From Omnitrophica WOR_2 bacterium RIFCSPHIGHO2_02_FULL_50_17 (GTDB taxonomy: Bacteria > Omnitrophota > Gorgyraeia > Zapsychrales > Zapsychraceae), in assembly GCA_001805645.1 (NCBI GenBank), contig MHGQ01000049.1:6283-64215 (forward strand): DNA of 57,933 nt. The letters are read 5' to 3'. The first letter of the stretch is position 1, and every line of letters begins with the position of its first letter. The notes beneath the pieces are model-generated. The model was not told the DNA's origin. It saw only the letters and a program-made list of their open reading frames with translations, and ran no database searches. Positions 9,214 through 52,224 of the stretch are shown here, in pieces. The translations under genes and the position numbers were made by a program.

Positions 9214-9297
9214 AGAAACTAAAGAACTAAGAAACTCAGAAACTAAAGAACTAAGAAACTCAGAAACCGAAAAATGAAAAACCAGAGAACTCAACAA
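9212..9297. repeat. Downstream arm of 8-nt periodic repeats (AGAAACTA/AAGAACTA/AGAAACTC)
   Basis: Perfect 24-nt tandem AGAAACTAAAGAACTAAGAAACTC at 9214-9237 and 9238-9261, then degenerate units. Confidence 0.95.
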
Positions 9298-9681
9298 CTA
9301 TCCTTCAGCCATTTCTTTCTTCCTCACACTGGAACAAAAGGCCTTCAATTGTCGGACTAAATTATCCGCTCTTTTCAGATATCCCTCATGCTTTCCTTCA
9401 TCAATATAGTGATCATCTAACGCACAATCCAGACACGCCACAACTTCATTGACGGAAGTTAAAGAATTATTCAAAAAGCGACTGAAATCCTTGTCTGAAT
9501 ATCGGTCAGAACCTTCGGCAATATTGAGGAGCACAGAATCAAGGGCCCTCCACAATTGCGAACTCAGCGCATATTGTTCTTCTTTGGGAAATATCTTTTT
9601 GGTCAACGTCTTTAAATCCTTACGAAACTCCCTTGCATCTTTATAAACCGGAAATTCCCGAAATCGAAAAATATTGCTCAT
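9298..9681 (-). CDS. Four helix bundle protein (23S rRNA IVP/Avd-like fold)
   Basis: 127 aa; FREFPVYKDA, FPKEEQYALSSQLWRALDSVLLNIAEG, FSRFLNNSLTSVNEV family motifs. Confidence 0.93.
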   Translation of the reverse strand: MSNIFRFREFPVYKDAREFRKDLKTLTKKIFPKEEQYALSSQLWRALDSVLLNIAEGSDRYSDKDFSRFLNNSLTSVNEVVACLDCALDDHYIDEGKHEGYLKRADNLVRQLKAFCSSVRKKEMAEG

Positions 9682-9740
9682 CTGCTTTTCTGTTTCCCGT
9701 TTTTCAGTTCTTCGGTTCTTCAGTTTCTCAATCTTTCTAT
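9682..9740. repeat. Upstream arm of 8-nt periodic repeats, inverted relative to 9212-9297
   Basis: Minus strand reads ATAGAAAGATTGAGAAACTGAAGAACCGAAGAACTGAAAAACGGGAAACAGAAAAGCAG. Confidence 0.9.
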
Positions 9741-42447: not shown

Positions 42448-43380
42448 CTATTCAAACCGAAATCCAACTCCGAGTTTATGCCCTGCGACAAAATCATGCG
42501 CCTCCATCGGCCTGGAGGCCTCGAAATGAACCTTTTTAATTCGCAGTCCACCTCCGGCGGCGGCGACCACAAAACCTTTCTTGTCAATTTCCGTTACTTC
42601 TCCTGAAGATACAACAGAAAAATCTTTGTCCATAACCTCGGTCTCCAGTATCTTCAGTAATTTCCCCTTATAAAAAGTATACGCCGCCGGCCACGGCAAA
42701 AGACCGCGCACAAGATTATAAATCACTTCAGCCTTACTATCCCAGCGGATACGTCCCAATTCTTTCGTCAATTTAGGGGCAAAGGTCGCCGCCTCATGCG
42801 CCTGCGGGGTCAAGGTATACGCATTTTTTTCAATTGTATCCATTGTCTCAAGAAGAAAAAACGGACATATCTGAGACATTCTAGTCCGTAATGTGACCGC
42901 GGTATCGTCCCGGGCGATGGCTATTTTTTCCTGAACCAAGATATCCCCAGCATCCAGGACAGAACTGATCTTCATAATAGAAATTCCCGTCTGCCGTTCT
43001 CCGTTGACAATTGCCCAGTTGATCGGCGCGGCCCCGCGGTATTTGGGCAGAAGGGAACTATGGACATTGACGGCAAAACGATGCGGCACCGCCAAAACCT
43101 CGTCGGGGAGAAACTGGCCGTAGGCAACCACAACAAATAAATCGCTGTCCAGGCATCTTAACTGGCTTAAAAAAACCTCATCCCGAAGACGCGTCGGCTG
43201 CAACACCAAAATCTTATGCTCCCCGGCGCACTGTTTAACCGGGGAACCGCTCACCTTCCAGCCCCTTCCCTTAGGCTTGTCAGGCTGCGTCACACAGGCT
43301 GCCACCTCATGTCTCGAGTCAATCAACGCCTTCAGATGCGCCGCGGCAAAATCATCGCTGCCAAAAAAGACAATATTCAT
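42448..43380 (-). CDS. fmt: Methionyl-tRNA formyltransferase
   Basis: FFGSDDF, TQPDKPKGRG, VVAYG, NVHSSLLPKYRGAAPI, LDAGDI. Confidence 0.97.
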   Translation of the reverse strand: MNIVFFGSDDFAAAHLKALIDSRHEVAACVTQPDKPKGRGWKVSGSPVKQCAGEHKILVLQPTRLRDEVFLSQLRCLDSDLFVVVAYGQFLPDEVLAVPHRFAVNVHSSLLPKYRGAAPINWAIVNGERQTGISIMKISSVLDAGDILVQEKIAIARDDTAVTLRTRMSQICPFFLLETMDTIEKNAYTLTPQAHEAATFAPKLTKELGRIRWDSKAEVIYNLVRGLLPWPAAYTFYKGKLLKILETEVMDKDFSVVSSGEVTEIDKKGFVVAAAGGGLRIKKVHFEASRPMEAHDFVAGHKLGVGFRFE

Positions 43381-43386
43381 AACATT

Positions 43387-43465
43387 ATCGCATGAAGCGT
43401 GAAACGTATTTCGTGAAGCGCAAAAAATATCTTACGAGATACTCTTCACGAGCGGCGCTTTACGA
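43387..43465. repeat. Intergenic hairpin of 7-nt periodic repeats (CGTGAAG-like)
   Basis: CATGAAG CGTGAAA CGTATTT CGTGAAG vs reverse complement CGTAAAG CGCCGCT CGTGAAG AGTATCT CGTAAG. Confidence 0.85.
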
Positions 43466-45310
43466 TTAAGGATCCACGTTAAGCGTTATCAGCGTGCTGT
43501 GCCTGCGTTTGAAATCTTTAATGACCGGCGTCGCATACGCCAGTATATCTTTTACCGACAGGCCTTTCAATAGAATTGTAAAACGATATTTATCCCGCAG
43601 CTTAGGATTCACATCCGGGTGCGGGTCAAGGACATCTATCCCTTGAGGTTTGCGCTTCTCCAAGCGCGCATAGAGATCCTTGGCCTGCTCAAAGACACGT
43701 TCTTCGTCGCTCCCGCGCAGTCCGACAGCCGCCAAATGTTTATAGGGAGGGAATCCCAGCTCCTGCCGGAATTTGAGCTCCTTGCGATAAAATCCATCGA
43801 AATCCCCCTTAAGGACCGCCCTCAGACAGTAGTTGTCGATCATCCGTGTCTGAACCAGCAGCTTCCTGACGGCAAACTGCCTTAAATGAACCAGGAGGGC
43901 AAAGGCCTTCTGGGCGCTGCGAAAATCCATGTGGTGCAGTTCGGCGTCAAAATTCACAACCGCCATTAAATCCACCGGAAAAGCCCCCTGTCCTTTCAAG
44001 ACCGCCTGGGTGGCAATCACCACATCCGCCTCCCGAGGGAATTCTGCCGTTTGCCGGTCGTAACGGCTGATGCGGGCATGGGGATAGAGCCGCGCCGCCT
44101 CGCTTTCCAGTTTCTCTATTCCTGTCCCGCTTGAACGCAGGTAGGAACCCGGACAGTGAGGACAAAATCCCGGCAATTCTGTCTTAAAAGAACAATGCCG
44201 GCAAACCATCCTCTTGGAGACGTACAAATACGTCAGATTGACATCGCAGCGCGGGCATTTCAGCGTCCATCCGCACTGAGGACAGCGCGTCTGTGTGCTG
44301 AAACCCTTGCGGTTCATAAATAAAACCACCTTGCCTTGCGCCGTCAGGGTCTCCTGTATCGCACTCTGTAAAGGAAAAGAAAGAATCGATGTCCGCTGGG
44401 GATTGTAATTGGTCATATCCACAGGCTGCATTTCGCTTAAACGATCCGGCTCATAGGTGATCTTTGTCCAACGCTCTTTTTTTGCCTTGTGCCATGTCTC
44501 GGCAGAAGGCGCTGAGCTGACATAAAGAAGAGAACATCCTTCACTCTGGGAGCGCATCTGCGCTATGGTCTGCGCCCGGTAATGAGGGGACTGCTCCTGT
44601 TTGTAAGCCGCATGCTCTTCCTCGTAAATAACAATCAAACCTAAAGAGGACACCGGGGCAAAAACCGCGGACCGCGTCCCCACAACGACCGTCGCCCTGC
44701 CTTCTTTGACCTTGATCCACTGCTCCAACTCCCGCGAGGAGCGCATCTTTTTATCCAGTACGATGACCGGACAGGAAACCTCTTTGAGCCTCTGCAGGAC
44801 AGATTCAATGAGCGATGCCTCGGGGACAAGAAAGATAACACGGCGTTTGGCCTCCCATACCTTTCGGATCGTCTCCAGGATAAACGGCCACCTCTTATCA
44901 GGGCTTTTGTCATGAAGCAAAATGACCTTCTTTCCCAAGGGCGCTTCGGCCTTATCTTCGCCGCAAGGCGTCCATTGAAGTTCTTTGGCCTTTCGCAGGG
45001 CCGTCGGCAGCCACGTCTGTGCGGCCTCCCCCCACGAACAGCCATAATATCTCCCGAAAGCCCTGGTGAGTTTGAGCGCCTTTTCATCAAGGGACGGATA
45101 ATCGTCGAGGATGGACAGAACAGGATTCAACGGCTTAAAGGGACTGTTCTTTTGGAATCGGACAACGACCCCTATGCTGGGGCGACGGTTAAACACCATA
45201 CGCACCCTTTGCCCCACCGCGATTCTATCCCGAAGGGATTTGCCGACAGAGTAATCGAAGGGGCCTTCGACGGGCAGGCCGACAATGACTTGTGCAATCC
45301 GTTTGTTCAT
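43466..45310 (-). CDS. priA: Primosomal protein N' (PriA) with degenerate helicase motifs
   Basis: 3'BD FDYSV, VVGTRSAVFAP, YKQE, FMNRKGFS, four CxxC, GTGIEK, FPPY; adjacent to fmt. Confidence 0.9.
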   Translation of the reverse strand: MNKRIAQVIVGLPVEGPFDYSVGKSLRDRIAVGQRVRMVFNRRPSIGVVVRFQKNSPFKPLNPVLSILDDYPSLDEKALKLTRAFGRYYGCSWGEAAQTWLPTALRKAKELQWTPCGEDKAEAPLGKKVILLHDKSPDKRWPFILETIRKVWEAKRRVIFLVPEASLIESVLQRLKEVSCPVIVLDKKMRSSRELEQWIKVKEGRATVVVGTRSAVFAPVSSLGLIVIYEEEHAAYKQEQSPHYRAQTIAQMRSQSEGCSLLYVSSAPSAETWHKAKKERWTKITYEPDRLSEMQPVDMTNYNPQRTSILSFPLQSAIQETLTAQGKVVLFMNRKGFSTQTRCPQCGWTLKCPRCDVNLTYLYVSKRMVCRHCSFKTELPGFCPHCPGSYLRSSGTGIEKLESEAARLYPHARISRYDRQTAEFPREADVVIATQAVLKGQGAFPVDLMAVVNFDAELHHMDFRSAQKAFALLVHLRQFAVRKLLVQTRMIDNYCLRAVLKGDFDGFYRKELKFRQELGFPPYKHLAAVGLRGSDEERVFEQAKDLYARLEKRKPQGIDVLDPHPDVNPKLRDKYRFTILLKGLSVKDILAYATPVIKDFKRRHSTLITLNVDP

Positions 45311-51054: not shown

Positions 51055-52104
51055 TTATTGTTCCGAACGATTCTTTTGTTTTAAAAAAGCGGCCAAATTT
51101 TTGACGTCTTGTGACAAATGTTTAGGACAAATCAAAAGGGCGTCAGAGGTATCAATAACGACCAGATCGTTTAAACCAATGGCGGCGACAAGACGTTGAT
51201 GGGCCCAAATCAGCGTGTCCCGGCAATCTAGGGAGACGACGTTGCCCCGCATTGTGTTACCTGCTTTGTCTTTAGGTAGAATTTCAAAAAGCGCCTCCCA
51301 GCTTCCCAAATCCGACCAGCCGATGCCGGCGGCTGAAACCGCCACAACATTAGAAGCCTTCTCTAATATACCGTAATCAACCGAGATGTTTGGCAGGCGA
51401 TTCCAAATCTTCTGGATAGGATCCTGACGATCCGCCCCCCCGACGTCGGCATAAATGGAAGGCAGATATTTCTTGAAGGCACGCAGGATAACTTCTGCCT
51501 TCCATACGAACATGCCGCTGTTCCACAGGTAACCCCCATTTTTCAAAAATTGTTTGGCCTTGACAAAATTCGGCTTCTCGATAAATTTTTCGACGTGTAA
51601 AACATTCTTGTCCTGTTTGGTTTTCAAATAGCCGTAGCCGGTTTCGGCGCGCGCGGGAACGATTCCGAAAGTAACGAGATACTCCTGCTGGGCCAGGTCA
51701 ACCGCTTTTTCCAGAAGCCGCAAAAATTTCGTGCGGTTGGCAATGAGGTGATCCGACGGCAAGACAACCATGACCGCGTGGGGATTCACGGCGTGGATGC
51801 GCGCCGCGGCCCAACCAATCGCCGGCGCTGTATTCTTCGCGCTGGGTTCCCACAATACCTGGGAGGCCCGCACCCCGAACCCGGCTGTATGACGTTTGAT
51901 TTCTTTCCGGTAGCGGCGGTTGGCGACAATCCAGATGTTTCCCGCAGGCACTTTCGGCGCGATGCGGCGGATCGTCTGGCACAGCAGGCTTTCTTTGCCG
52001 ACGAGATTCAGAAACTGCTTGGGCCGGCTCTGGCGGCTGGCCGGCCAGAACCGCGTGCCGGAACCACCGGCCAGGATGACGGCGTGTAAATTATTTATAC
52101 CCAT
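51055..52104 (-). CDS. manC: Mannose-1-phosphate guanylyltransferase
   Basis: LAGGSGTRFWP.SR..PKQF, EP..KNTAPAI, LPSDH, ETGYGY, FIEKP, WNSGMF, WSDLGSW. Confidence 0.95.
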   Translation of the reverse strand: MGINNLHAVILAGGSGTRFWPASRQSRPKQFLNLVGKESLLCQTIRRIAPKVPAGNIWIVANRRYRKEIKRHTAGFGVRASQVLWEPSAKNTAPAIGWAAARIHAVNPHAVMVVLPSDHLIANRTKFLRLLEKAVDLAQQEYLVTFGIVPARAETGYGYLKTKQDKNVLHVEKFIEKPNFVKAKQFLKNGGYLWNSGMFVWKAEVILRAFKKYLPSIYADVGGADRQDPIQKIWNRLPNISVDYGILEKASNVVAVSAAGIGWSDLGSWEALFEILPKDKAGNTMRGNVVSLDCRDTLIWAHQRLVAAIGLNDLVVIDTSDALLICPKHLSQDVKNLAAFLKQKNRSEQ

Positions 52105-52224
52105 TGTTTCCCAAAAAGGTTAAAAAAAGTTATGGGATGTTGGAAAAGGTTTCAAAAAGATTTGGGGGTCAAACCTGTTTCAACTTATTTCAACCTCTTC
52201 CAACATTTTTCAACCTTAAACAAT
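52103..52224. repeat. Intergenic hairpin of 10-nt periodic repeats (AAGGTTGAAA-like)
   Basis: Arms 52116-52164 and 52170-52217 with a 5-nt loop; outer 7-bp IR ATTGTTT/AAACAAT. Confidence 0.85.

Follow-up and report, generated by a model that had tools for sequence, protein, structure and literature searches.

The 85-nt gap between priA and fmt in the DNA stretch of an uncultured Omnitrophota bacterium analysed here (57,933 nt, referred to below as the window) is an ORF-less, non-autonomous member of a dispersed family of palindromic elements. The family has a full-length copy with a PF05635 gene elsewhere in this genome. It is probable that this gene-less copy of a PF05635-linked element is a fold-back insertion tolerated within an mRNA, and the best reading of our data is that it represents insertional DNA of fast turnover, neither a dedicated regulator nor a terminator. 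The most likely function of this single copy is none beyond being tolerated. The locus taken alone is weak evidence for anything; the signal lies in the array together with family membership and not in the count of the CGTGAAG word, which occurs in the window at chance level (7 exact matches found, 6 expected).

All genes of the window are located on the minus strand, and the features discussed here are collected in Table 1. In mRNA sense the gap reads UCGUAAAGCGCCGCUCGUGAAGAGUAUCUCGUAAGAUAUUUUUUGCGCUUCACGAAAUACGUUUCACGCUUCAUGCGAUAAUGUU-AUG and forms an imperfect palindrome with a period of 7 nt, in which CGT (CGU) on one arm and ACG on the other are spaced at intervals of 7 nt, so that the original prediction of CGTGAAG-type heptamers in inverted orientation on two arms was confirmed. 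The autocorrelation of the gap, judged against 5000 shuffles, gave z = 2.2 at lag 7, z = 4.2 at lag 14 and z = 3.8 at lag 21; the lag-14 peak results from the alternation of units of the CGTGAAG and CGTATCT types in the 7-nt frame (a 14-nt super-period). The gap contains the inverted repeats I1-I3, and the ungapped pairing of its arms has p of about 0.009. The minimum free energy of the gap folded as RNA is -25.2 kcal/mol (z = -1.6), which corresponds to moderate stability, and that of the gap folded as DNA is -13.2 kcal/mol (z = -1.2). The target was missed by TRF and by our strict array/hairpin classifier; it is a degenerate family member, recognised only through homology. It begins, as had been noticed previously, at the base directly after the priA TAA. 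Its end had been placed 6 nt before the fmt ATG; 11 nt separate the ATG from the last unit that can be recognised, and the difference is a matter of where the end is drawn. The residual leader CGAUAAUGUU is similar to the final bases before ATG in sister lineages (CGAAAGATT, CGAAATATATT). Within the species neither a target-site duplication nor an empty-site allele was seen, and the element was present in every run holding the locus. In run X5 an extra C follows position 43424 in the A-run of the loop (GCGCAAAC...) at about half of the contig depth, as a population variant, and the same spelling occurs in the paralogous copy C35:727. As to the upstream gene, the encoded PriA has HDKSPDKR at the Walker A position and YEEEH in place of DEEH, and its DEAD-box Pfam match is below the cut-off; this PriA may be helicase-dead.

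Table 1. Location of the features of the priA-fmt junction and of related or compared features of the same genome (positions without a contig prefix refer to the window).
Feature	Position	Strand	Details
priA	43466..45310	minus	614 aa; Pfam PriA_3primeBD, PriA_C, Zn_ribbon_PriA
priA TAA stop	43466-43468	minus	
fmt	42448..43380	minus	310 aa; Pfam Formyl_trans_N, Formyl_trans_C
priA-fmt gap	43381-43465		85 nt
5' hairpin arm	43433..43465	minus	mRNA sense UCGUAAAG CGCCGC UCGUGAAG AGUAUCU CGUA; begins at base after priA stop
5' arm units	43433-43465	plus (as read)	TACGAGATAC, TCTTCACG, AGCGGCG, CTTTACGA
Loop	43422..43432	minus	AGAUAUUUUUU in mRNA sense; AAAAAATATCT on plus strand
3' arm	43391..43421	minus	GCG CUUCACG AAAUACG UUUCACG CUUCAUG; four ACG-anchored heptamers
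3' arm units	43391-43421	plus (as read)	CATGAAG, CGTGAAA, CGTATTT, CGTGAAG, CGC
Residual leader	43381..43390	minus	CGAUAAUGUU before fmt AUG; without Shine-Dalgarno
Full-length cassette, other unit family	9216..9725	minus	inverted AAACTAAG / GTTCTTCA arrays (TRF)
PF05635 gene of this cassette	9298-9681		127 aa; Pfam 23S_rRNA_IVP, E = 1.5e-26
RAYT-like Y1 transposase (Y1_Tnp) genes	G000:C64:47312-48019, G000:C66:12314-12988		235 and 224 aa
Single reverse transcriptase	G000:C42:22566-23525		319 aa; NAxxH, VTG, YSDD by eye

A BLAST search of the genome assembly (1.92 Mb in 77 contigs, with 7% of the genome missing) with the gap as a query revealed related sequences at C60 (two sites), C35 (two sites), C72, C26, C61, C41 and C56. 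The target is identical to C60:8652 at 56/75 positions, to C35:727 at 59/75 and to C72:8783 at 55/68 (75-81%), with z = 19-24 against shuffles, and at least 8 further dispersed copies reside at other gene junctions. Positions 6-22 of the gap are the same as C72:8795-8811 (17/17), and positions 14-34 the same as C60:8693-8713 (21/21). All aligned copies share the arms, and the two ORF-less copies C60:8652 and C35:727 have the target's loop AGAUAUUUUUU as well. Among the loci of this family is a cassette, C41:6158-6588, in which arms of the CGTGAAG type enclose a 124-aa PF05635 gene (C41:6197-6571; 23S_rRNA_IVP, E = 2e-35, with a weaker bAvd-like match); the expectation that heptamer arrays of this type flank small accessory genes was thereby borne out. 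By BLAST the arms of this cassette match nine other loci in the genome, the target among them; the cassette is the top 9-mer match to the target among 23 cassettes, and 21/23 nt of the fmt-proximal arm of the target are identical to the arm at C41:6158-6190 (by eye). The 75-81% identity to three gene-less copies, loop included, places the target in an ORF-less subfamily that is apparently spreading as such. Since the loop is common to C60:8652 and C35:727, the gene seems to have been deleted once, with subsequent spread of the deleted form. The pattern is that of autonomous and non-autonomous members, and the common loop speaks for copying of the ORF-less form as such.

Elements of this design are frequent in the genome. 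We found 57 period-7 arrays vs. 3 in shuffled sequence, and 37 strict tandem-repeat hairpins vs. 3. Most of the nine PF05635 genes of the genome have their own inverted arrays of 7-10 nt units alongside. The arms of five cassettes retrieved gene-less hairpins (9 for CGTGAAG, 7 for TAGACCA, 4 for AATGTCA, 2 for C37, and 1, at about 52,100-52,220 of the window, for the fifth cassette, which has a 10-nt unit), and those of a sixth (C66) match one locus by BLAST. The family of the target also fills unrelated junctions, for example those of hemE and of a tRNA flank. The hemE-like gene (337 aa; G000:C60:7558-8728) is bracketed by two separate hairpins of the CGTGAAG family, each of which abuts a start codon and leaves no room for a Shine-Dalgarno sequence.

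The adjacency of priA and fmt is conserved across the family and the order. The spacer is tight (-1 to 14 nt) in 8/27 relatives, most of them with AGG/GGA before ATG, while in about fifteen it measures 56-330 nt and consists mostly of hairpins with arms of tandem 7-8 nt units. The unit differs from genome to genome (GAAGCAA, GTAGTAC, ACGAGTT, GGTCAGT, TAGTGYC and others). A long unstructured spacer, proposed earlier as the outcome that would speak against insertion, was not found in this comparison; the relatives have either a tight spacer or a hairpin of other 7-8 nt units. The element of the window sits in a former spacer of about 10 nt and has displaced the Shine-Dalgarno sequence that relatives with a tight junction have kept. 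In two relatives the hairpin at this junction matches the arms of a cassette resident in the same genome: the GAAGCAA hairpin of G004 (L003) matches cassette G004_C53, and the GGTCAGT hairpin of G011 (L025) matches cassette G011_C23 and its cognate G004_C75. This comparison covered the two relatives with fetched cassettes and the genome of the window. In the closest named relative (L002 of G003) the gap contains two long, near-perfect plain hairpins without tandem units; these may represent another type of element at this site.

An exchange of elements is visible in a sister lineage. In other groundwater runs the flanks of the gap are about 95% identical to those in the window, and 83 nt of the gap are replaced by 93 other letters. 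In this sister lineage (PriA and Fmt together 93% identical) a hairpin of 95 nt, built from ACGAAGT/ACTTCGT units, takes up precisely the space from stop codon to start codon and hardly varies among four samples (1 substitution vs. 4 in 60 nt of flanks). The presence of a different element in the sister, together with the tight orthologous site in relatives, upheld the original prediction of an insertion in a housekeeping junction. A relative with Fmt 77% identical has a decayed version of the sister hairpin, with 17/20 nt of the right arm in common (by eye). In the tree of PriA and Fmt the first of these two is the sister of the window and the second the next outgroup (supports 98 and 100), so that the ACGAAGT-type element is probably ancestral at this junction and was later replaced by the CGTGAAG type in the lineage of the window. 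The target resembles its paralogues elsewhere in the genome far more than it resembles the element of the sister at the same site. Descent in place from the latter was considered and rejected: in the same orientation the comparison gave z = -0.1, and in the inverted orientation 64% identity with z = 3.8, a value inflated by shared periodicity. Both elements are CGT-anchored heptamer arrays. Copies of the ACGAAGT type occur also in the genome of the window (C14, C49:117663), and arms of this type are found on one cassette of a relative (G031_C10). The PriA protein of the relative with Fmt 77% identical (L035:876-2927) reaches 683 aa through in-frame insertions of 28 and 14 aa. The first insertion contains a perfect small palindrome of the CTTGCTGCCTAT.. 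/ ..ATAGGCAGCAAG type and has the appearance of a hairpin element translated as part of the protein.

The absence of a Shine-Dalgarno sequence upstream of fmt, pointed out previously, was verified: none of GGAG, GAGG, AGGA and AAGG occurs in the 25 nt before ATG. This is not unusual in the genome, where the core of the Shine-Dalgarno sequence precedes 42% of genes vs. 20% of control positions. Among genes downstream of hairpins it was found in 4/25, significantly fewer than the 42% genome-wide (p = 0.008). The elements begin 0-8 nt past the upstream stop and finish 0-18 nt ahead of the downstream start, and the leftover spacer beside them has a median of 12 nt. In 24/34 hairpins the better fold is that of the sense strand and not of the antisense strand (p = 0.013), a bias that could come from transcription-associated C-to-T mutation instead of selection. 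A promoter-like sequence, TTGAAA-17-TATACT (10/12), is present at 43542-43570 on the minus strand, inside the 3' end of priA, at the chance level for the region; with transcription from this site the hairpin would stand in the 5' leader of fmt.

A search for RNase III bears on the fate of such hairpins in a transcript. No match to PF14622 or PF00636 was found in the genome assembly of the window, while positive controls were detected, and a tblastn search of this genome with the RNase III proteins of two relatives gave nothing (best E = 0.7). With the same two Pfam families, a match over the curated cut-off was obtained in 2/40 relatives from the family and order. Two relatives have weak RNase III-like matches that fall within open frames of giant size (16,023 and 44,856 aa). 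The presence of RNase III does not correlate with the absence of cassettes, the two rnc-positive relatives having 2 and 5 PF05635 genes.

The following course of events would account for these observations. The element may have landed in the short spacer and would be co-transcribed with priA and fmt. The arms would pair in the mRNA and hold the priA stop near the fmt start, and translation of fmt would continue through termination-reinitiation or through unwinding by ribosomes. As arm pairing keeps stop and start close, fmt would remain translatable and the insertion would be nearly neutral. Without RNase III a long stem would not be a cleavage site and its cost would be small, so that nearly neutral insertions, spared from the cutting of long double-stranded RNA, would pile up at operon junctions. 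REP elements of E. coli can affect upstream mRNA stability and translation. By analogy, a hairpin near the stop codon may slightly lower PriA output or alter mRNA stability; such an effect is possible and is unnecessary for explaining the data.

An alternative reading is that of a selected cis-regulatory RNA hairpin of the priA-fmt operon, whose sequence would be free to drift or to be swapped and which would set the PriA:Fmt ratio through stalled termination, protection of the priA 3' end or coupling of fmt translation to that of priA. We regard it as unlikely. It draws on the recurrent occupation of the junction: with the strict classifier a tandem-repeat hairpin was found at 7/27 priA-fmt junctions, which are phylogenetically non-independent, vs. 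9 of about 350 others (about 2.6%; odds ratio 13, p = 3e-5), the control junctions being taken from 387 kb around fmt in 20 relatives and including overlapping genes that cannot accept insertions. In the genome of the window such hairpins are present at about 2% of junctions. This roughly tenfold enrichment could reflect selection retaining the hairpin here, i.e., function rather than neutrality, and it could also come from target preference or from unusual tolerance of the site. In the clade around the window the gap is long and structured in all five members, elements at the junction are replaced rather than lost, and the better folding of the sense strand and the lack of Shine-Dalgarno sequences in downstream genes would also fit regulation. 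Against it, eight relatives do well with the tight spacer; a minimum of 8 changes between the long and the tight state is required on the tree, which is no improvement on shuffled labels; the same family fills junctions as unrelated as those of hemE and the tRNA flank; the junction hairpins match resident mobile cassettes and not the hairpins at the same site in other genomes; and the stem of the target is weak, as its z value for RNA folding indicates.

The remaining alternatives concern the origin or the processing of the element. The original prediction named a scar or a non-autonomous family member, and while the latter description stands, owing to the loop shared with C60:8652 and C35:727, the former fits less well. 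A scar formed in place, in which a full PF05635 cassette lost its gene here, left its arms and never moved empty, would explain the homology of the arms to those of the gene-bearing copy and would agree with the decay of PF05635 genes through stop codons and truncations that is seen in relatives. It is nevertheless improbable, given that C60:8652 and C35:727, at other junctions, have the same loop and inner arm (GCGC-A-rich-TTT-TACGAGATACTCTTCAC), a match that three independent deletions would not yield, and that the loop holds no alignable ORF remnant. Cleavage of the stem by RNase III, as in the intervening sequences (IVS) of rRNA, would split the priA-fmt transcript into two mRNAs; the design of the element matches the Coxiella IVS (PMC4990558), but the enzyme is missing from the profile and tblastn searches of this genome, and its absence here and in 38/40 relatives means that excision of the IVS type cannot be assumed, which makes this reading very improbable. 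Hardly credible, finally, is the view that the gap contains an attenuator or intrinsic terminator downstream of priA, or that its palindrome arose by chance or by local slippage. An inner AU-rich 7-bp stem is indeed followed by U6 (AGUAUCU-CGUA-AGAUAUUUUUU), but the U-run lies in the loop region inside the larger hairpin, with fmt beginning within 11 nt, and is missing from other family copies; a terminator/promoter scan called neither a terminator nor a promoter in the gap, and the stem is not followed by a U-tract; and convergent junctions and operon ends show no enrichment of hairpins, 86% of which are at co-directional junctions, equal to the genomic baseline. Rfam gave no match for the gap at the gathering threshold or at E <= 1. 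Chance is ruled out by the homologous copies elsewhere. Our preferred reading therefore remains that of a tolerated, ORF-less fold-back insertion.

The distribution of the elements bears on their mobility. PF05635 genes were found in 34/41 genomes searched, in up to 9 copies each, some of those in relatives with stop codons and truncations. The CGTGAAG pattern has 9 matches in the genome of the window, 54 in G011, 5 in G031 and 0-2 elsewhere, vs. 0-1 for the reversed control. The matches in G011, a member of the same family, represent a burst of about 30 hairpins of this type, and no CGTGAAG-armed PF05635 gene is among those detected in that genome. Copies of G011 share a CGTGAAGCGTCGTTCGTGAAGCGCAAACA stretch with C35:727, with one base different (by eye), and this similarity, despite only 47% identity of Fmt between the two genomes, indicates horizontal spread or strong sequence constraint. 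Over about 29 nt, some of the G011 copies hardly differ from copies of the window's genome. No transposase associated with the family was found, and the PF05635 protein, an Avd-like four-helix bundle, is the sole candidate specificity factor. The borders of nine copies show no target-site duplication, degenerate outer units leaving these borders uncertain.

Overall specificity of the proteins for their arms was rejected, as arm sharing is uncorrelated with protein identity (median 34% vs. 34.5%). Identical arms surround proteins that are 32% identical, proteins 62% identical have different arms, and co-variation is seen in some pairs only, such as G011_C23 and G004_C75 (61% identical, same arms). 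This loose coupling leaves a simple model, in which each protein moves its own arms, unsupported. The proteins closest to that of the CGTGAAG cassette (62% and 59% identical) are flanked by other CGT-anchored arms, which is a suggestive pattern. Two other candidates were discarded as well. RAYT was rejected as the mobilising enzyme since the REPs that flank the two RAYT-like genes of the genome are unrelated to CGTGAAG arrays; each of these genes adjoins its own REP-type palindrome (GGGGGACACAATACTTAATTCCCCC; ACCACCTCGTAGGTGGT), and a classical REP/RAYT system thus coexists with the heptamer elements. Reverse transcriptase was rejected as an Avd-like partner, the only one in the genome lying near none of the cassettes and having retron-type motifs (by eye). 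It adjoins methyltransferase-like genes and is probably part of a defence island.

As a tentative and, on balance, doubtful general model, anchored-heptamer inverted arrays and PF05635 genes (encoding Avd-like pentamers) would form a single class of transposase-less mobile fold-back elements. In this joint scheme the elements would target stop-start junctions of operons, with preference for some, such as priA-fmt, and residents would be overwritten by other families; they would be tolerated since the hairpin keeps the cistrons coupled, and would thrive in Omnitrophota through the loss of RNase III. Recognition by the protein would rest on a trinucleotide kept constant every 7 nt, with drift in the four remaining bases, and this would explain similar proteins (57-68% identical) beside CGTGAAG, CGTCGTT and CGTACTT arms. 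If true, the same principle would cover the 23S rRNA IVS, the heptamer pairs of Xanthomonas and the cyanobacterial STRR.

This class of fold-back repeat elements is poorly described so far. New here are the recurrent occupation of one junction, the exchange seen in the sister lineage and, in three genomes, the correspondence of the junction hairpin with a resident cassette. Further new points are that RNase III is lacking, that Shine-Dalgarno sequences are scarce behind the hairpins, and that proteins and arms are loosely coupled. The priA-fmt junction is a compact natural experiment, with one conserved housekeeping site occupied by different hairpin families in different genomes of an RNase III-less lineage, and it therefore provides substrates for testing array binding by the protein, translational coupling and whether RNase III loss enables spread. 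For annotation, long structured spacers in Omnitrophota operons are to be read as insertions and not as regulators, with adjacent start codons that lack ribosome-binding sites.

Among known systems, the element resembles REP and REPIN sequences in being a short, dispersed, ORF-less palindrome of operon spacers that would be transcribed with its neighbours and turns over fast. It differs from them in that its arms are tandem arrays of 7-nt units and not a single GC-rich stem, in that the RAYT-like genes of the genome are flanked by other palindromes, and in that the associated gene encodes a four-helix-bundle protein without known catalytic activity. With MITE-like palindromes (ERIC, Neisseria Correia, Rickettsia RPE) it shares the character of a non-autonomous fold-back insertion tolerated in transcription units; unlike them, it has arms with an internal 7-nt periodicity. 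Neither a signature of terminal inverted repeats with a target-site duplication nor a cognate transposase was found, at borders left uncertain by the degenerate outer units. Intergenic tandem heptamer arrays are known from Xanthomonas (GGGAATC; PMC4692102), from heterocystous cyanobacteria (STRR) and from Beggiatoaceae (TAACTGA; PMC4679880), and in Xanthomonas 70-75 convergent/inverted pairs are able to form stem-loops (PMC4692102). Those repeats were interpreted as G-quadruplex or translational signals (PMC4692102, PMC4679880), whereas the units described here are genome-specific, with several families per genome.

The 23S rRNA IVS of Coxiella burnetii and Leptospira (PMC4990558) differ from the target in their location, at helix 25 or 45 and not between two protein genes (the window contains no rRNA), and in the enzyme that excises them, RNase III, which the host of the target and nearly all relatives lack. 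The target gap is also devoid of an ORF, PF05635 being present only in the full-length copy of the family, and many gene-less copies are scattered through the genome. In the literature cited here, the repeats STRR, TAACTGA and GGGAATC and the protein of the 23S rRNA IVS have no assigned function, and inverted heptamer arrays are nowhere tied to PF05635 genes or to Omnitrophota (PMC4990558, PMC4692102, PMC4679880). The stem of the Coxiella IVS contains tandem GACAGAT heptamers in numbers that vary among strains, and RNase III cleaves the stem at the first of these repeats (PMC4990558). Like these IVS, the elements described here have terminal inverted repeats that form a long stem, would be transcribed within a host transcript, as we infer for the target, and in their full-length members carry a PF05635 (S23p) gene.
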